Of a stretch of DNA of 64,000 nt, positions 34,493-47,686 are shown one piece after another. The stretch comes from an uncultured delta proteobacterium (lineage in GTDB: Bacteria; Desulfobacterota; Syntrophia; Syntrophales; UBA2185). The translations under genes were made by a program, and so were the position numbers. The notes beneath the pieces are model-generated. The model was given only the letters and a program-made list of their open reading frames with translations, ran no database searches and was not told the origin of the DNA. Numbering within the stretch: position 1 is the stretch's first letter; each line of letters begins with the position of its first letter. The stretch covers positions 128,001 to 192,000 of the forward strand of contig CAVSPA010000006.1 in assembly GCA_963729715.1 (NCBI GenBank). The letters are read 5' to 3'.

Positions 34493-35617
34493 TTATATTC
34501 GTTCCCCGCACTGATTGCAGAACATGGATTTTGGCAGATTTTCGGTGCCGCACTTTGGGCACTTGAGTGACTCGGGTTTCTCTTCTACAGGGTGGCCGCA
34601 CTGCACGCAAAATTTCGCATTGGGTGGAAGATTCTTGCCGCACTGAGAACATTGCTGAAAGACAACGATCTGGTGCCCGCAATGGGGGCAGAACTTGGCT
34701 TCTTTAGATACATTTTGCTGGCAGTCGGGACAGCTGAAAATTTCCGGTGTCGAGGTCTGCTGGGTCGGTGAGCTCTTAAATGCCTCGGCGAACATGGCGG
34801 GCATCATGAAGCCCATTCCCATGCCCAGTCCGGCTCCCGCCTGTCCCTGTGACTGGGCTGCTGTCTCCATGGCCATGGCCGCCTTCATCTTCAAGAGTTT
34901 ATTGAGGTCATCAAAAATCCCGAGGCGGCTCTTATCGTCTATGGCCTTCTGAACTTCCGGCGGCGGCGTGATGGAATTGATATACAGCTGGGAGAGGCCC
35001 AAACCAAAGTGAGAAAAATCTTCTTCGAGGGCCTTTTTCAGACCGAGAGCGAGCTCATCGTATTTTGCGGGAAGGTTAAAGATGGTATCGATATGCTTTC
35101 CCATGAAATCGTTAAAGCGGGAAACGATTACACGGTTCAGGTATTCTTCAATGGCATCAGCAGTAAATACGCCCTGGGTTCCGACAAGACTGTTTATCAG
35201 GAGAATGGGCTGAAGAACCTGGATGTTAAAAACCCCGAATGCCCTGAGACGGATGAGTCCCAATTCTGAATCTCTGAAGGCGACGGGATCGCGTGTTCCC
35301 CATTTCAGATTGGGAAAGACTTTCATATTGACGAAGTAAACTTCTGCCCGCAGCGGGCTGGTCATTCCCCAGGGCAGGCTGAATATTTTTGTCAAAATTG
35401 GAATATTGGCCGTTTGTAGTGTGTGCCTGCCGGGCCCGAATGCATCATAGGCCTTGCCGTTATAGAAAAAAACCGCGGCCTGACTTTCTCGAACCGTCAT
35501 CTGTGCGCCGAACTTGATTTCACCAGATCCATTTTCGGGGATTCTATGAACCAGCTCTTTCCCCTGCTCGTCAAACCATTCGATAACTTCCAGAAATATT
35601 AGGTTGTTGGTTCCCAT
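34493..35617 (-). CDS. SPFH-domain protein with C-terminal double zinc ribbons
   Basis: VRESQAAVF, PGRHTLQTANIPIL, KWGT; three CxxC...FCxxCG repeats. Confidence 0.9.
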   Translation of the reverse strand: MGTNNLIFLEVIEWFDEQGKELVHRIPENGSGEIKFGAQMTVRESQAAVFFYNGKAYDAFGPGRHTLQTANIPILTKIFSLPWGMTSPLRAEVYFVNMKVFPNLKWGTRDPVAFRDSELGLIRLRAFGVFNIQVLQPILLINSLVGTQGVFTADAIEEYLNRVIVSRFNDFMGKHIDTIFNLPAKYDELALGLKKALEEDFSHFGLGLSQLYINSITPPPEVQKAIDDKSRLGIFDDLNKLLKMKAAMAMETAAQSQGQAGAGLGMGMGFMMPAMFAEAFKSSPTQQTSTPEIFSCPDCQQNVSKEAKFCPHCGHQIVVFQQCSQCGKNLPPNAKFCVQCGHPVEEKPESLKCPKCGTENLPKSMFCNQCGERI

Positions 35618-39111: not shown

Positions 39112-40383
39112 ATGGATATAGGAATGGTGAGCATTTTTATTGGCGTGCTGGTCATCATGGCAGTCATTATTTATATCAAGGCGAACATGAAGATCTGTGA
39201 GCCCAATGAGGTAATGATTTTCTCCGGCAGGCAGTTTAAGGATAAGGACAAAAAGTCGGTGGGCTACCGTGTCATCAAGGGCGGCCGGGGTTTGAAGATC
39301 CCGCTTATCGAGACGGTGCGGACGATATCGTTAAACACGATGCCCATCGAGATGGATGTAACGGGTGCGCTCACGAGGGGGACGATCCCCGTGAATGTGA
39401 AGGCCATAGCGAATATCAAGATTGCCGGCACCATGGAGGATGGTCTGGGCAATGCCATCGAGAGGTTCCTGGGTAAGAGCGCGACGGCGATAGTGACGAC
39501 GGCAAGGGAAATCCTGGAAGGAACCCTGCGTGGCATCCTGGCGACGATGGAGCCTGAGGAGGCGAATGCGAACCGGATAGCGTTGGCGCAACAAGTTGCC
39601 AGAGAGGCAAGGGAAGATATGCAGCGGCTGGGTCTGGTTCTGGATACGTTCAAGATCCAGGAGATCAAGGATGACAAGGGGTATTTAGAGGCTATCGCAC
39701 GGAAGAAGAACGCCGAGGTCCACCGGGATGCGCGGATCGTGGAGGCCGAATCGAATGCGGAGGCGAGCAAGAAGGAGTCCGAGGGCAAGAAGATTGCGGA
39801 AATTGCGGAGATCCAGGCCCGGCGGTCCGTTGTAGAGACGGAGATGAATTTCAGGGTTCAGCAGGCACAATGGAAGGCTGACGCCAATCGTGCGGAGGAG
39901 AAGGCAAAGGTGGCAGGAGACATCTCGCGCATGGAGGAGACGAAGACCCTTGAGGCTCGGCGTGTGGAGACGAACAAGCTGAAGTATCAGGCGGATGTGA
40001 TAATTCCCGCGGCAGCGGAGAAGGAAGCATTACTGATGAAAGCTGCGGGAGCGGCGGCAAGCACGTTTGAGGAAGGGAAGGCGAAGGCGGAGGCGTTAAG
40101 GCTGCTACGTGAGCAGTGGGAACACCCGAACAGCAAGGACCTGTTCATGATCCAGCTCATGCCGGAACTTGTGGGTCATGTATCGAAGGTGATTGCCTCC
40201 AATCTCAGTGTGGAAAGGCTGACTGTAGTTGATGGGGGCGGAAGTGGCAGCGGCGGCGGTATCCCCCACCTGGTAGGGAACCTGGCCGGCTCGGTCAATT
40301 CCTTCTTCGAACAGATGAAGACTATGACAGGCCTGGACCTCGCCAGGTTGATAGAAGAACACTACCAGGCGTCGTCTAAATAA
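39112..40383 (+). CDS. Flotillin-family SPFH protein
   Basis: N-terminal TM, PNEV.IFSGR, AIERFLG, LEGTLRG, EA-rich coiled coil. Confidence 0.9.
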   Translation: MDIGMVSIFIGVLVIMAVIIYIKANMKICEPNEVMIFSGRQFKDKDKKSVGYRVIKGGRGLKIPLIETVRTISLNTMPIEMDVTGALTRGTIPVNVKAIANIKIAGTMEDGLGNAIERFLGKSATAIVTTAREILEGTLRGILATMEPEEANANRIALAQQVAREAREDMQRLGLVLDTFKIQEIKDDKGYLEAIARKKNAEVHRDARIVEAESNAEASKKESEGKKIAEIAEIQARRSVVETEMNFRVQQAQWKADANRAEEKAKVAGDISRMEETKTLEARRVETNKLKYQADVIIPAAAEKEALLMKAAGAAASTFEEGKAKAEALRLLREQWEHPNSKDLFMIQLMPELVGHVSKVIASNLSVERLTVVDGGGSGSGGGIPHLVGNLAGSVNSFFEQMKTMTGLDLARLIEEHYQASSK

Positions 40384-40505
40384 AAAAACATGTCGCAAAG
40401 GCAACTGCGGCATGTCTCACATTCCCGCGAAAATTCTCCTCCCCCCGCGGGAGGGGAATGACGGGAGGTAGCGATGAAAGGTGTTTTCACTCACCTCAAC
40501 ATCTC

Positions 40506-40553
40506 CCGCGATATATTGCGCAGTAAGACTCCACGGAATAATATATGTAGCAC
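40506..40553. promoter_or_regulatory. Tandem NrdR-box-like sites
   Basis: CCGCGATATATTGCGC (40506) and ATAATATATGTAGCAC (40538), 32 bp apart; consensus acaCwAtATaTwGtgt. Confidence 0.5.
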
Positions 40554-40702: not shown

Positions 40703-42121
40703 ATGAGACGGAAGGACGCACAGTATGCAAAGGTTTATCGAGGGAAGGCGCTGATTGCCGATCCCATATACCAGTATGCCTCTTTTACTGTGCCGACAAC
40801 TGATTTTCCGGACGAGAAAACGGAAAAGGACCTGATCGATTCTCCCTGGGTTCAAAGATTGCGGAGAATTTACCAGCTCCAGAGTGCCCGCTGGGTGTAT
40901 CCGGCCGCAGAGCACAGTCGATTCCAGCATTCCCTCGGGACCATGCACGTGGCGGGCGAGTTCGGAAGATATCTTTATCCCAGCCTGAAAGAGGTGTGCA
41001 GGGATGCCCCTTCATTGAACTATGTTGAGGAGGTTCTCCGCGTTGCGGGACTTCTGCATGATGTGGGGCATGGCCCGTACGGGCATTTTTTCGATGACCA
41101 CTTTCTCAGCCAGTATGACATTACCCATGAGGATCTGGGAAAAGCGATTATCACGAAAAGGTTGGGGAAGATCATCCGTCAAATCCGAAGAAGCCCTAAC
41201 GGTCCCTTTGCCGGTGGTGAATGCCTCGACCCAAATCACGTGGCAATTCTGATTAAAATGCCGGAGGGGGATGAAACTGGGGTGCCGCGGTGGCTGCAGC
41301 TTCTGAGGCAGCTCTTTTCAGGCATTTACACCGTGGATAATCTCGACTATGTGCAGAGAGACGCCTACATGACGGGGTTCTCCCTCGATATTGTGGATAT
41401 TACGAGACTTCGCTTTTATACTTTCTTTACGAAAGACGGCTTCACCCTGCATCAGGCAGGCATCTCGGCCCTGAGTCGCTTCATAAATGCAAGATTGAAT
41501 CTCTATACAAATGTCTATTTCCATAGGACGACGAGAGCTCTTGATCTTCATCTGCAGGAGATATTCAGGGAAACGATGCGCATAATCTTTCCATGGAATC
41601 CATTGGAGGCGCTTGACGAGTATCTGAATTGCGATGAATGGCATTTGTACTATATAGTTTTGGGCTGGCTCGGGGAAAAGGACCGGAAGAAACAGAGACT
41701 GAGTCAGGAATGGACAAAGCTTTACAGCAGGGAAGTGAAATGGAAGATGTCTTTTTCAACAGAGATATCCATCGACCAGATTCAAAGGGGGACGAGATTC
41801 GCCCATGCAGGCGACTATGAAAAGCAACTCAGGAGTTTTCTTCCTGAAAAACTGAAAGGCATTCCATTTCGCGTCGATTTGGCAACACAGGACCCACGCC
41901 CCATAAACCCCATGGCAGAGACGGAAAAAAGGGTTAATATCTTCAACCCGACCACGGGTACAACGTCCCCGGAGCCATTGAGAGACATCTACCGCTTTAT
42001 ACCGGCGCGTGTCGTTCATCTGCGCGTCTTTGCACTTTCCCACGATAATGATGCAGCGATTTCCAAGGCCGCTGAAAAGATGCTTAGCGCCTTGGAGGGA
42101 ACTGCAAAGACTAATGTATGA
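40703..42121 (+). CDS. HD-superfamily dNTP triphosphohydrolase-like protein (COG1078 type)
   Basis: QRLRRIYQL...HSRFQHSLG, LHDVGHGPYGH, DNLDY, VYFH. Confidence 0.88.
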   Translation: MRRKDAQYAKVYRGKALIADPIYQYASFTVPTTDFPDEKTEKDLIDSPWVQRLRRIYQLQSARWVYPAAEHSRFQHSLGTMHVAGEFGRYLYPSLKEVCRDAPSLNYVEEVLRVAGLLHDVGHGPYGHFFDDHFLSQYDITHEDLGKAIITKRLGKIIRQIRRSPNGPFAGGECLDPNHVAILIKMPEGDETGVPRWLQLLRQLFSGIYTVDNLDYVQRDAYMTGFSLDIVDITRLRFYTFFTKDGFTLHQAGISALSRFINARLNLYTNVYFHRTTRALDLHLQEIFRETMRIIFPWNPLEALDEYLNCDEWHLYYIVLGWLGEKDRKKQRLSQEWTKLYSREVKWKMSFSTEISIDQIQRGTRFAHAGDYEKQLRSFLPEKLKGIPFRVDLATQDPRPINPMAETEKRVNIFNPTTGTTSPEPLRDIYRFIPARVVHLRVFALSHDNDAAISKAAEKMLSALEGTAKTNV

Positions 42122-42240
42122 CCCGATCATCGGAAATATTTTTTGTCTATAGTGTTGAACACTATATGTCTTTTATCCCCCTACGCATTGCTTAGGGAAA
42201 ACTCCGGGGAAAAATTATGACAAATTTAAGGTAATCGCGG

Positions 42241-44307
42241 ATGGCAAATGACGAGACCACAGATATAACCCTGTTCGTGAAGACATCCGGCGAGGATATT
42301 GCCAGATGGAACCGGCAGAAAATTGTTGATGCCCTGATCCGTGAAACGAACGTCAATGTAGATACGGCAGAGGCAATCAGCAGAGAAGTTGAAAAACAGA
42401 TCATTTCATCCGGTATCGGTGTACTGACTACGCCCCTCATCAGGGAACTGGTGGACGCAAAACTAATCGAGAGGGGCCTTGAACAGGCAAGAAAGATGCA
42501 CGCCCTGCTGGGATTTCCCATTTATGATGTACGGCAGTTGATCCTTCTTCAGAATAAGGAAAACGCCAACATACCTCACAGTCCGGAAGGCACGAATCTG
42601 ATACTTGCGGAAGGAATAAAGAAAGAATACTCACTCTATGAGGTCTTTTCTCGGGAAGTCGCAGATGCGCATGTTATGGGCGATATCCACCTTCATTCTC
42701 TGGGATACATAGACAGGCCGTACAGTTCATTTCAGTCTCTTGAATATATAAAGAAATTCGGTTTGAACCTTCCCCACTCCCTAACAGTTGCCAAACCGGC
42801 CAAACATGCGGAGGTACTCCTCGCCCATATGGTCAGATTCGGCGCCATTCTGCAGGGGCATTTTGCCGGAGTCATCGGCTGGGATGCCGTTAATTTCTCT
42901 TTTGCACCCTATCTGGCAGAGATGAGCGAAAAGGAAGTCAGGCAATTCGCCCAGATGCTCATTTATGAATTCTCCCAATTGACATCGGCTAGGGGCGGGC
43001 AGGCCATGTTTACTGACATTCACCTCTACTGGGATGTTCCGGAACATCTTCGGGATGTTCCGATTATCGGCCCGGGAGGAGAATTGACGGGGAGTAATTA
43101 CGAAGATTTCGCCGCTGATGCAAGGAGATTTGCTTGGGCCATTTTCGAAGTCTTTATAAAAGGGGACGGTACGGGCAAGCCTTTCATATTTCCCAGGCCA
43201 CTCGTTCATATTACCGGGAATTTTTTTCAAACGCCGGGTCATGAAGACTTTCTCAATCTCATCTGCCGCGTTGCCGTTGACAAGGGAAATACATGCTTCC
43301 TTTTCGATCGCGAGGAGATGATTAAGGCTTATTCGTGCGGTTTTCCGGCCACCGCTGAAAAGGGTAATGTGTCTGCCGAGGCGAAGATGCCCTGGCGGAT
43401 GAGATGTCCGGTCTTACAGAACGTGACACTGAACCTTCCCAGGCTGGGTTACAAAGTCGAGGGGGATGAGAAAAGATTATTGTCTATGCTCTCCGATCTT
43501 ATGGAAGTGGCAGCAAAAGCCCACGTAGAGAAGAAGGATTTTATTGAGAAGCTACTCTCCCACGGTGACGAAGGACCGCTGTCCGTGCTCGCGATGAAGA
43601 GAGATGGCTATCCGTATCTGAGGATGGATCATGCATGCTTCCTCATCGGCACTGTGGGACTCAACGAACTTGTCCGGATTCATACGGGAAGCCAGTTGCA
43701 TGAATCGGAAGATGCCCTGATGTTTGGTTTGAAACTGATCGCCCATATGAAGGATGAGACCGAAAAACTGAGCCGGAAATATGGCTTGAATTTTATCTTG
43801 GAACAGACGCCTGCGGAAACCACAGCCTACCGTTTTGCACGGCTCGATCTGCGATACTATTCTCCGAAGGCGGGTCATTTTGTGCAGGGTGATATTTCGA
43901 AGGGAGAGGTCTACTATACAAATTCAACCCATCTTAGCCCATCAGCCACTGTGGATCCAATAGAACGTGTAAGACAGGAAGGCCGCTTTCATCCTTTGAC
44001 AAAGGGAGGAGGCGTTACCCAGGTGTGGCTCGGCGATGTTCGACCTTCGAGTGAGGAAATCGTCGGGTTTATCACCAAGGCATTTACGGATACTGAGAAC
44101 GATCAGCTTCTGTTCTGTCCTGAATTTACCACCTGTAGAGAATGCGGCCAGACATTCAGGCGCCTAAAAGATGAGTGTCAATTCTGCGGCTCGAAGGATG
44201 TGGAAGGGATAGCGAGGATTACCCAGTATTTCAGCAGGATATCCGGCTGGAATAGAGGTAAACTGGCTGAACTCAGGGACAGGAAGAGATACGAGGAAAT
44301 CAGTTGA
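42241..44307 (+). CDS. nrdD: Anaerobic (class III) ribonucleotide reductase NrdD homolog with atypical catalytic residues
   Basis: ATP cone, GDIHLH, TLNLPR, EQTPAETTAYRFA, YYTNSTH, CxxC...CxxC; RITQY where RITGY is expected. Confidence 0.85.
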   Translation: MANDETTDITLFVKTSGEDIARWNRQKIVDALIRETNVNVDTAEAISREVEKQIISSGIGVLTTPLIRELVDAKLIERGLEQARKMHALLGFPIYDVRQLILLQNKENANIPHSPEGTNLILAEGIKKEYSLYEVFSREVADAHVMGDIHLHSLGYIDRPYSSFQSLEYIKKFGLNLPHSLTVAKPAKHAEVLLAHMVRFGAILQGHFAGVIGWDAVNFSFAPYLAEMSEKEVRQFAQMLIYEFSQLTSARGGQAMFTDIHLYWDVPEHLRDVPIIGPGGELTGSNYEDFAADARRFAWAIFEVFIKGDGTGKPFIFPRPLVHITGNFFQTPGHEDFLNLICRVAVDKGNTCFLFDREEMIKAYSCGFPATAEKGNVSAEAKMPWRMRCPVLQNVTLNLPRLGYKVEGDEKRLLSMLSDLMEVAAKAHVEKKDFIEKLLSHGDEGPLSVLAMKRDGYPYLRMDHACFLIGTVGLNELVRIHTGSQLHESEDALMFGLKLIAHMKDETEKLSRKYGLNFILEQTPAETTAYRFARLDLRYYSPKAGHFVQGDISKGEVYYTNSTHLSPSATVDPIERVRQEGRFHPLTKGGGVTQVWLGDVRPSSEEIVGFITKAFTDTENDQLLFCPEFTTCRECGQTFRRLKDECQFCGSKDVEGIARITQYFSRISGWNRGKLAELRDRKRYEEIS

Positions 44308-44508
44308 CTCCGCATACGTCTAAGTATGCCTCATACCGTATGATTTGCACACCCTAGAACTCGCGTTTTCTACGCGGCCGTCTGTTTGTCAATCCTGCAA
44401 AAGATTTTTTTCGTATATCATTAATGCCCTGCCCTTGACATGGGATAGGCCGATAAATATATTACGCACAGAATTTGGCCATTTTAAACGCAAGACCGCA
44501 TAGTTGAC

Positions 44509-45093
44509 ATGGAAGATCATATAGTAAAGATATTCAAGGAAAGCAGTAATCTGACGGATGTTTTCGTCGCAGAAAATCTTGATGGTATTGTCAGTGTCAT
44601 TGAGGCAATTACGGCGGCATTGAAAGCAGGAAACAAAATACTGCTGTTTGGGAACGGTGGCTCCGCCGCTGATGCCCAGCATCTGGCAGCAGAATTTGTG
44701 AACCGCTTCGTTATAGAACGTCCGCCGCTTCCGGCAATTGCCTTGAGCACCGATACATCCGTGATTACGAGCATCGCTAACGATTATGACTTCTCTGAGA
44801 TATTCAGCAAGCAGATCAGGGCGATAGGCCAGACAGGCGACGTGGCGTGGGGCATAAGCACCAGCGGTGCCTCTCCAAACATCATAAAAGCCATTGAAGC
44901 AGCAAAGAAGATAGGGATGATCACAGTAGGCATGACGGGGAAGGACGGGGGCGACATAGCCAAGATGGTGGACTATTCACTCAATGTTTCCTCTAACAGC
45001 ACACCGCGCGTGCAGGAGGTCCACATTACCGTGGGCCATGTGATATGCGAGATGATTGACTATAAGCTCTTTCAGAGGCCGGATGCGAAATAA
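44509..45093 (+). CDS. gmhA: Phosphoheptose isomerase
   Basis: GNGGSAADAQH, ISTSG, RVQEVH. Confidence 0.95.
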   Translation: MEDHIVKIFKESSNLTDVFVAENLDGIVSVIEAITAALKAGNKILLFGNGGSAADAQHLAAEFVNRFVIERPPLPAIALSTDTSVITSIANDYDFSEIFSKQIRAIGQTGDVAWGISTSGASPNIIKAIEAAKKIGMITVGMTGKDGGDIAKMVDYSLNVSSNSTPRVQEVHITVGHVICEMIDYKLFQRPDAK

Positions 45094-45130
45094 AGGCGGC
45101 GACGCCGCCTCGGGCATAAGACGATCTGAA

Positions 45131-45721
45131 ATGATGAATCGACACCATATGAGCCATAAAATAAAAAAGGAAGTTACAAAAGAAACACCGGATGTTCTGG
45201 AAAAAGAAGGGGAAGAGCAACAAATCTCCGGTGATGAGGATATAATGTTAAAGCTTCAGGAAAAGGAAAAGGAGGCAGCCGACAACTACGACAAATATGT
45301 GCGTGCGGTTGCGGAACTTGAAAATTACAGAAAACGCGCAGCAAGGGAGAAGGCTGATTCGATTAAATATGGCAATGAAAATATCATTAAGGATATCTTG
45401 CCCCTGGTAGACAGCATGGACAGGGCATTACAGCATGCTGACAGCTATGGCTATTCCGATTCATTTAAGAAGGGATTAAAGCTCCTCCAGGATCAGCTCC
45501 TGGGTTGCCTCGGAAAACACGGCGTGCAGCAAATCGAGTGTGTTGATAAAACTTTTGATCCAAACATCCATGAAGCCGTATTTCAAGTTGATACCGGCAC
45601 CCATGAGGATAACAAAGTCGTTGAGGAACTGGAAAAGGGGTATCGTCTGCATGAGAGGCTGTTGAGGCCGGCCAAAGTGTCTATTTTTAAACTACCGAAG
45701 AAAGAAGATAGCAAGGAATAA
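45131..45721 (+). CDS. grpE: Nucleotide exchange factor GrpE (start uncertain)
   Basis: AELENYRKR, FDPNIHEA, KGY.L.ERLLRPAKV. Confidence 0.95.
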   Translation: MMNRHHMSHKIKKEVTKETPDVLEKEGEEQQISGDEDIMLKLQEKEKEAADNYDKYVRAVAELENYRKRAAREKADSIKYGNENIIKDILPLVDSMDRALQHADSYGYSDSFKKGLKLLQDQLLGCLGKHGVQQIECVDKTFDPNIHEAVFQVDTGTHEDNKVVEELEKGYRLHERLLRPAKVSIFKLPKKEDSKE

Positions 45722-45760
45722 ATAAAAGGGGAAACCAGATATTAAGGAGGATTGTTAGAG

Positions 45761-47686
45761 ATGGGTAAGATTATAGGGATTGATTTAGGGACGACAAATT
45801 CATGTGTAGCAATTATGGAAGGAGGAGATCCCGTTGTAATAGCAAATCAGGAAGGAAGCAGGACCACGCCTTCCATGGTGGCGTTTACAGATAGTGGTGA
45901 GAGGCTGGTCGGTCAAGTTGCCAAGCGACAGGCCGTAACCAATCCGGAAAATACCGTTTATGCCATAAAGAGGCTCATAGGGAGGAAGTTTTCCTCCAAA
46001 GAGGTTCAGTACGATAAATCGGTATGTCCTTACAGGATTACGGAGGCGCCCAACGGTGATGCCCAAGTGACCATAAAAGGACGGAATTACAGCCCGGCGG
46101 AAATATCAGCTTTTATTCTTATGAAGATGAAACAGACAGCGGAGGATTACCTTGGAGAGAAAGTAACCGATGCGGTTATTACGGTGCCCGCGTACTTCAA
46201 TGACTCTCAGAGGCAGGCTACGAAAGATGCAGGAAGAGTTGCCGGATTGAATGTGCTCAGAATCATCAATGAACCGACGGCAGCAGCCCTTGCATACGGT
46301 CTTGATAAGAAAAAAGATGAAAAGATTGCCGTGTTCGACCTTGGCGGCGGGACGTTTGATATTTCCATCCTCGAGCTAGGAGACGGCGTTTTTGAAGTCA
46401 AGTCGACGAACGGAGATACCCATTTAGGTGGTGAAGACTTTGACCAGCGACTAATGGAATATATTGCCGTGGAATTCAAGAATGATTACGGTATTGATCT
46501 GCGTAATGACAGGATGGCCCTCCAGAGGATTAAGGAGGCGGCAGAAAAGGCGAAAATGGAACTTTCCACCGTTATGGAAACAGATATAAACCTTCCATTT
46601 ATAACTGCCGATGCGTCAGGGCCTAAACATTTGACGATGAAATTGACGAGAGCCAAGCTGGAATCTCTGATTGAGGACCTGATCGAAAAAACAGTAGGAC
46701 CCTGCAGAACCGCGCTTAAGGACGCAAACCTGACGGCAAAAGACATCAATGAGGTTATTCTCGTTGGCGGTATGACCCGTATGCCCAGGGTTCAGCAGAA
46801 GGTTAAAGAGATATTTGAGAAGGAACCCCACAAAGGGGTGAACCCTGATGAAGTGGTGGCAGTCGGCGCTGCTATCCAGGCGGGCGTCCTGGCAGGTGAT
46901 GTTAAAGATGTCCTCCTTTTGGATGTGACACCCCTGTCTCTCGGAATTGAGACCCTCGGTGGCGTGATGACGAGGCTGATCGAGAAGAATACCACCATTC
47001 CAACCCGGAAGAGCCAGATCTTTTCTACAGCTGCGGATAATCAGCCTGCCGTTAGCATTCACGTCCTGCAAGGTGAGAGGTCCATGGCGGCTGACAGCAG
47101 AACCCTGGGAAGATTTGAACTGGTAGGAATACCGCCCGCGCCGAGAGGTATGCCTCAGATTGAGGTGACCTTCGATATCGACGCCAACGGGATAGTTCAT
47201 GTATCGGCAAAAGACCTTGGGACAGGCAAAGAGCAGAGCATCAAGATTACTGCATCGAGCGGTTTGACTGAAGCAGAGATACAGAAACTGGTGAGAGAAG
47301 CGGAGGCTCATGGAGAGGAAGATAAGAAAAAGAAGGAGCTTATCGAGGCCAGAAATCAGGCGGATTCCATGGCATACAGCGCAGAGAAGAATGTCAAAGA
47401 ATTCGGGGATAAGATTGATGCCACAGAAAAGGCACGTATCGAAGATGCCATTGCCAGAGTAAGGAAGGTCATCGAAGGGGATGACATTAACGCCATCAAG
47501 AGCGCCCAGGAAGAACTGACGAACGCATCACATAAGCTTGCTGAGGCCATGTATGCAAAGGCTTCAGCCTCACAGGCAGGCGCTGGCGCAGGTCCAGGGG
47601 CGCACGGAGGGCCCGCCGGTGAACAGCCGGGCGCGAGCAAGAAGGATGAGGATGTGGTTGACGCTGACTTTGAAGACGTGAAATAA
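45761..47686 (+). CDS. dnaK: Chaperone DnaK
   Basis: [26 protein letters not shown]. Confidence 0.98.

Follow-up and report, generated by a model that had tools for sequence, protein, structure and literature searches.

The gene at positions 42241–44307 (+) of the window, the whole 64,000-nucleotide stretch of DNA analysed here from an uncultured delta proteobacterium of the order Syntrophales, encodes a homologue of the class III ribonucleotide reductase (RNR) NrdD that is almost certainly dead as an RNR, judging from the residues it has lost. Since the radical residues are lost and the nucleotide-binding sites are kept, the product is probably a nucleotide sensor, and we favour with moderate confidence a role as a non-catalytic (d)NTP-binding sensor or scaffold. 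The relevant features of the window are as follows.

40703..42121, + strand: homologue of the SAMHD1/EF1143-like HD-domain dNTP triphosphohydrolases, 472 aa, single copy
42241..44307, + strand: putative NrdD pseudoenzyme gene, 688 aa, descended from the double-Cys (ECCR), Glu-bearing class III RNR lineage
42256..42540, + strand: divergent ATP cone, residues 6–100 (Pfam match, dN/dS of 0.042, conservation)
42562..42696, + strand: NxN flap (Asn108–Asn110) and triphosphate-binding HxH (His150, His152), with the next Asp lost (Ser153)
42724..42726, + strand: Ser162 in place of the βA redox Cys (Cys125 in the aligned T. maritima NrdD)
42781..43026, + strand: helices αA/αB and loop 2, comprising the dimer face, effector site, and substrate-base residues (dN/dS of 0.021, alignment)
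43312..43392, + strand: decayed finger loop, residues 358–384, with SCGF in place of ECCR (identity, dN/dS)
44134..44187, + strand: retained zinc site, Cys632, Cys635, Cys646, and Cys649 (each in 166/166 non-Gly copies)
44224..44226, + strand: Gln662 replacing the Gly of the glycyl radical (alignment to T. maritima NrdD, relatives' loci)
44509..47686, + strand: gmhA-like SIS gene and two genes that we take to be grpE and dnaK (conserved downstream synteny)

The reading frame is uninterrupted over its 688 codons, and the motifs named in a preliminary description of the window are found as described: the radical loop reads RITQYF with CAG at codon 662 (44224), PYC is replaced by PYS with AGT at codon 162 (42724), the finger loop reads YSCGF (residues 364–368), and the C-terminal CxxC...CxxC is formed by Cys632, Cys635, Cys646, and Cys649. 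A single base error had been considered unlikely from the codon itself; both CAG and CAA are used at codon 662 among relatives, so the motif cannot stem from an error in base calling. The protein belongs to the class III RNRs by its 10-stranded α/β barrel and by its match to the NCBIfam NrdD profile TIGR02487 (355 bits; cut-off, 326 bits), and class III RNR structures are the best structural matches to its AlphaFold2 model (pLDDT, 80.9, with low values in the finger and radical loops). Because the degenerate copy passes this naming cut-off, genomes of the order are mis-annotated.

For comparison, 240 sequences (five fragments left out) were sorted into 50 canonical copies, defined by Cys162, CCR, and Gly662, 166 non-Gly copies, defined by residue 662, and 24 others with Gly, among which two (L214 and L215) proved to be intact. 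The counted sequences are relatives of one another rather than independent samples, and counts at the defining residues are circular because the group definitions use them, whereas the remaining counts are not. The degenerate copy lacks the radical Gly of the C-terminal loop (Gln662), the βA Cys (Ser162), and the thiyl-Cys GCR/CCR motif of the finger loop, where SCGF leaves Cys366 as the sole Cys and the Arg is gone. Position 162 is occupied by Ser in 147, Ala in 8, and Asn in 6 non-Gly copies (161 of the 166 in all). The finger loop has a mean identity of 21% in the non-Gly copies versus 81% in the active relatives (the canonical group), and Cys366 is retained in 102/166. Both Cys366 and Cys367 are present in seven of eight sequences of the genus, with Gly367 in the copy studied here, and about half of the non-Gly clade has a Cys at position 164, where this copy has Phe. 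Residue 662 itself varies among the degenerate copies, with Gln, His, Leu, Arg, and Lys all seen; at the relatives' loci it is Gln in 25 of 29, and Leu, Lys, and Gly in one each, with one unreadable.

In marked contrast to the lost radical residues, the nucleotide-binding and structural residues are well conserved: His150, His152, Arg199, Gln238, Gln246, Gln254, Glu526, Tyr663, and the four zinc-binding Cys are invariant in the 166 non-Gly copies, and Asn110 (165), Arg251 (163), and Phe257 (160) are nearly so. The zinc site, the NxN flap, the HxH, and the effector residues of class III RNRs are all in place, although the Asp of HxHD is lost. In an alignment read by hand, the effector residues Arg199, Gln238, and Gln246 correspond to T. 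maritima Gln161, Gln210, and Gln218, the substrate-base residues Arg251, Gln254, and Phe257 to Arg221, Gln224, and Tyr227, and the triphosphate-binding His150/His152 to Tyr112/His114; the roles of the T. maritima residues in effector, substrate, and triphosphate binding are taken from the available text of PMC4493059, and those of the flap, Glu, and Tyr of NrdD from that of PMC11226230. Changes fixed across the degenerate clade are K199R, QA247–248LT, N261H, K319R, and Y352C.

The ATP cone reported as retained is indeed present, but divergent, with a Pfam score (24.1 bits) below the cut-off (25.8 bits). Its motif is common to the active relatives and highly conserved, and the cone is the sole region more conserved in the degenerate than in the active copies (mean pairwise identity, 78% versus 71%); overall identity runs in the opposite direction, with the degenerate clade being more diverged (66% versus 77%). 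Its divergent type corresponds to the inner of the two cones in two-cone relatives. According to the accessible part of PMC9669993, such inner cones are prone to functional drift, so that the cone of the degenerate copy may not bind ATP.

The gene is found in 105 of 111 Syntrophales genomes (an even draw, with the motifs read in subsets), as full-length open frames in ~18 families at 51–92% identity. The dN/dS values between the degenerate copy and 17 relatives are 0.08–0.13 (Nei–Gojobori), i.e., about 0.10, indicating purifying selection, and those of the active relatives are 0.03–0.07; dS reaches 2.2 with a dN of 0.19 in the comparison of relatives. By region, eight sequences of the genus give 0.042 for the cone, 0.037 for the flap and HxH, 0.021 for the helices and loop 2, and 0.275 for the finger loop. 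The finger loop likewise gives 0.28–0.47 in three other degenerate groups versus 0.013–0.047 in three active groups, the value of a fourth active group being saturated. This regional contrast indicates that the radical loop has been released from selection, whereas the binding parts have not; the purifying selection on the protein is strong and centres on the ATP cone, the dimer/effector helices, loop 2, and the substrate-binding residues. The proposal of a maintained non-catalytic paralog is thereby substantiated, with Gln in most relatives' loci, purifying selection, and loss of the catalytic residues together with their gene context; the opposite case of close relatives with Gly and relaxed selection on this copy does not hold. 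A record titled Syntrophus aciditrophicus (L065) also carries a degenerate copy.

In a quick IQ-TREE tree with the trait columns removed, the Syntrophales copies are united in a single clade (SH-aLRT, 98), within which the non-Gly copies likewise make up a single clade (SH-aLRT, 97). A degenerate copy from family f39, outside the order, stands as sister in this tree (support, 99), whereas FastTree grouped it with the canonical copies and left the base open; both trees have long branches, and the placement of P0137, P0149, P0152, and P0178 is unsure. In the side groups that keep the Gly, one or the other Cys is mostly gone. Two copies of the Syntrophales type (L085 and L117) keep Cys162, CCR, and Gly with no nrdG alongside, and are possibly still-active or early-stage forms; neither a second nrdD nor an HD match was found in the genome of L085. 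The intact relatives (PYC, ECCR, RITGY) are ~60% identical to the degenerate copy, and the available text of PMC9669993 describes the ECCR, Glu-bearing type as thioredoxin-dependent. NrdD3 was considered as the parent lineage and rejected, as it is QCCR without the Glu in the same part of that paper, whereas the parents are ECCR with the Glu.

The intact relatives and the degenerate copies also differ in gene context. At intact CCR/RITGY loci, a gene for a thioredoxin- or glutaredoxin-like protein follows in 22/22 and nrdG in 21/22, and both accompany nrdD in 13/13 further intact loci; neither nrdG nor a thioredoxin-like gene was seen at any of 78 loci of the Syntrophales type (a few being the same gene fetched twice). 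Scored on six positions from the accessible part of PMC13584703, a single NrdR box occurs upstream in 48/50 canonical versus 2/92 degenerate regions, and a box pair in 31/50 versus 0/92, with shuffled sequences giving 5–10% for single boxes and under 1% for pairs. A scan with a different box consensus gave the same split between canonical and degenerate regions. The locus of the degenerate copy is without a cognate NrdG activase and without NrdR control. Upstream of the HD gene, a single box and a pair were each found in 1/65 regions; an NrdR-like box at 40506 was accordingly discarded as a control site of the HD gene, not being conserved (1/65). A short inverted repeat lies at 42144–42169, between the HD gene and the degenerate nrdD, and no conserved counterpart of it was seen in the few upstream regions of relatives inspected.

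The genome carries a second nrdD on contig C4, which is 28% identical to the degenerate copy and has the βA Cys, MCCR, and RVVGY. Directly behind it lies nrdG, the genome's only NrdG2 match above the cut-off, in keeping with the earlier statement that no activase gene adjoins the degenerate copy, and the only strict tandem pair of NrdR boxes in the genome precedes this intact nrdD. No large subunit of a class I or II RNR was found in the genome, in which the intact nrdD–nrdG pair supplies the dNTPs. The expectation that RITQY would always occur beside a second canonical nrdD and nrdG was borne out in part: both nrdD genes are present in most genomes of the order, but in five with a degenerate copy (G039, G210, G230, G241, and G059), a class I/II large subunit was the only other RNR found, with no second nrdD. 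Because these five are draft genomes, the absence is not proven. Each of five near-closed genomes has a single nrdG, which adjoins the other nrdD in all four for which its place is listed.

Directly upstream of the degenerate nrdD lies the HD gene, whose conserved part (472 aa) begins with the ATG at 40703 rather than the GTG at 40481. Residues of its metal site and flanks (Arg73, His76, His119, Asp120, His123, His128, and Asp212) are invariant (60/60), and by these residues the product is a SAMHD1/EF1143-like dNTPase homologue. Among 96 genomes with both genes, the gap, measured between aligned ends, is within 60 bp in 53 and 61–300 bp in 23; in the others, the genes lie within 10 kb (10 genomes) or elsewhere (10 genomes). 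Nine of the 105 genomes with a degenerate copy have no HD match, including all six of family f91 (RITRY), and four of the nine are single-contig; three of the 111 have the HD gene without the degenerate copy and three have neither. In two genomes outside the order, the genes are on separate contigs, and in another 22 genomes of the phylum, no nrdD lies within 1.5 kb of the HD homologue. The suggested partnership with the HD enzyme is therefore plausible, with a gap of ≤300 bp in 76/96, but not obligate. Synteny with the downstream gmhA–grpE–dnaK genes is conserved too, so that the adjacency of the HD gene and the degenerate nrdD may be a matter of history. These downstream genes probably form a separate transcript, to judge from an 11/12 sigma-70-like match at 44435–44463 (a pattern match only). 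Complex prediction with the degenerate NrdD (residues 6–684) and the last 321 residues of the HD protein, the chain of which was cut to fit, scored 0.00 in two runs with no controls, and speaks neither for nor against the partnership.

Several further observations were made on these neighbours. The HD protein family has a conserved C-terminal TN[VIL] tail, outside the order as well. An apparent HD–NrdD fusion, a 1203-codon open frame in L095, was rejected, being another frame over the HD gene. At L196 (genome G002), genes for a 1940-aa repeat-like secreted protein and a 667-aa partner, presumably resembling two-partner secretion, lie between the HD gene and the degenerate nrdD. Two SPFH/Band 7 genes, at 34493–35617 (−) and 39112–40383 (+), flank a block just upstream in the window that we take to be amtB–glnK–glnA-like.

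Three roles had been suggested for the product, and among them that of a nucleotide-sensing regulator fits best, as we infer from the conservation of the sites. In this role, the degenerate NrdD would stay a zinc-bound homodimer, with dNTPs binding at the effector site and a (d)NTP at the old active site, and its nucleotide preference would have been fixed and retuned by K199R and the loop 2 change of QA to LT. A partner that acts in dNTP homeostasis might then receive this bound state by way of the flap and the cone. The upstream dNTPase is the leading client, though only tentatively so, and the degenerate NrdD would be its non-obligate tuner. It is conceivable, but rather doubtful, that class III RNRs several times became dNTP gauges in which the entire allosteric apparatus (cone, effector site, loop 2, and substrate pocket) is retained, and that the one in Syntrophales controls a SAMHD1-like dNTPase; if true, dNTP breakdown in bacteria has a regulatory subunit not described before.

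The conserved nucleotide sites would also fit a new non-radical enzyme, in which the emptied barrel has been rebuilt as an active site for a nucleotide, although we consider this unlikely. The substrate-binding residues are retained, and His261 (165/166 non-Gly copies; Asn in 50/50 canonical ones), Arg319 (164/166; Lys in canonical), Cys352 (141/166; Tyr), Thr248 (162/166; Ala in canonical), and Gln662 (149/166) are nearly or largely fixed, several of the clade-fixed residues being on or at predicted strands of the barrel. However, the clade-fixed residues are absent from the Gly-keeping sister groups, position 662 tolerates five different residues, and the fixed changes may do no more than occupy the volume vacated by the finger loop.

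The higher conservation of the cone in the degenerate than in the active copies would also fit a co-regulator of nrd transcription that acts cone to cone with NrdR or another DNA-binding protein, a role to which we assign a low probability. The genome does have nrdR, and 5 of 25 degenerate two-cone loci described below have this gene immediately upstream. But the degenerate copy has no DNA-binding domain, nrdR is on another contig, and, because intact two-cone nrdD genes are preceded by nrdR as well, the linkage can be inherited.

A role as heterodimer partner or regulatory subunit for the intact NrdD of the genome would be consistent with the presence of both genes in most genomes of the order, and constraint on the protein is highest in the dimer helices. 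Against this, the intact enzyme is of the MCCR type and shares only 28% identity, and no second nrdD was found in the five draft genomes. The heterodimer proposed earlier is thus unlikely as a general role, and we hold such an association to be very improbable in this genome.

An aminoacyl (here glutaminyl) radical enzyme, analogous to those with Ala, Ser, or Thr radicals, is highly improbable. Non-Gly α-carbon radicals do exist, as reported in the available text of PMC11528403, and the radical domain, the zinc site, and Tyr663 are retained; the paired Cys at 366–367 are present in seven of eight sequences of the genus, and Cys164 in about half of the clade. The known enzymes, however, all keep the catalytic Cys and have an adjacent activase in that text, whereas the degenerate copy has lost the Arg of CCR and the βA Cys, has Gly367 and Phe164, and belongs to a clade with a variable residue 662, and the single nrdG of the five near-closed genomes lies beside the other nrdD in the four with a listed place. 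A decaying pseudogene or an assembly error, to which the relaxed finger loop, the overall dN/dS (0.10–0.13) above that of active relatives (0.03–0.07), and the lack of the gene in 6/111 genomes might point, has a negligible probability and is refuted by the dN/dS values and the spread of full-length frames over ~18 families, by dS of up to 2.2 with dN of 0.19, and by the invariant binding residues.

Among known systems, the degenerate copy most resembles the double-Cys, Glu-bearing, Met-less NrdD (T. maritima, PDB IDs 4COI/4COJ/4U3E; N. bacilliformis), with which it has in common the fold, the effector and substrate residues, the Glu equivalent (Glu521), and the zinc-binding C-terminal domain, but it differs from the T. 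maritima type in having no radical Gly, CCR, or βA Cys, and no adjacent nrdG, thioredoxin-like gene, or NrdR boxes. The aminoacyl radical enzymes (Fu et al. 2024, PMC11528403, in its accessible part) likewise belong to the glycyl-radical family with another residue in place of Gly; theirs is Ala, Ser, or Thr, with the Cys kept and a cognate activase, none of which is found in the degenerate copy or beside it. The R1 homologues of β-herpesviruses (HCMV UL45 and MCMV M45) are also RNR large subunits without catalytic residues, and are put to a binding role according to the available text of PMC5469499, but they are class I, viral, and involved in host signalling, whereas the present protein is class III and bacterial, and keeps its nucleotide sites. 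NrdR, a repressor composed of a zinc ribbon and an ATP cone, is similarly cone-bearing, non-catalytic, and linked to the nucleotide pool (available text of PMC13584703 and PMC12051234); it is ~150 aa long and binds DNA, whereas the degenerate copy has a whole barrel.

In the available part of the 2024 survey, only Gly-bearing class III RNRs are reported (PMC11528403), the accessible portions of PMC9531940 and PMC9176816 hold nothing on degenerate NrdD copies, and no description of a bacterial or class III RNR pseudoenzyme was found in the open-access literature, to which the search was confined. RNR pseudoenzymes are known from herpesviruses, and an order-wide, apparently dead class III copy is new to the literature searched. 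It would represent a natural separation of RNR allostery from RNR chemistry, by which a role of the RNR scaffold outside catalysis, long supposed, becomes directly testable.

Degenerate NrdDs also occur far from Syntrophales. A profile search gave, among its top 150 representatives, 27 two-cone proteins of 740–773 aa (P0162, P0189, P0209, and 24 more; loci L240–L286) that lack both the βA Cys and the entire radical domain, as well as several single-cone non-Gly proteins. For the two-cone group, 80 metagenome loci were retrieved, of which 25 hold degenerate copies; nrdR is upstream in 5 of the 25, and also before many intact two-cone nrdD genes. The HD gene was seen at 0/80 of these loci and was rejected as a general partner of degenerate NrdDs. 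Taken together, the distant lineages and their varied neighbours indicate that dead NrdDs recur, with different neighbours. Further distant non-Gly NrdD-like proteins are P0143, P0151, P0149, P0152, P0178, and P0257. In family f39, the degenerate copy (L182/L191 in G059 and L183 in G098) is unlinked to the HD gene; that of G059 reads RITNY, and both genomes carry a class I/II RNR.
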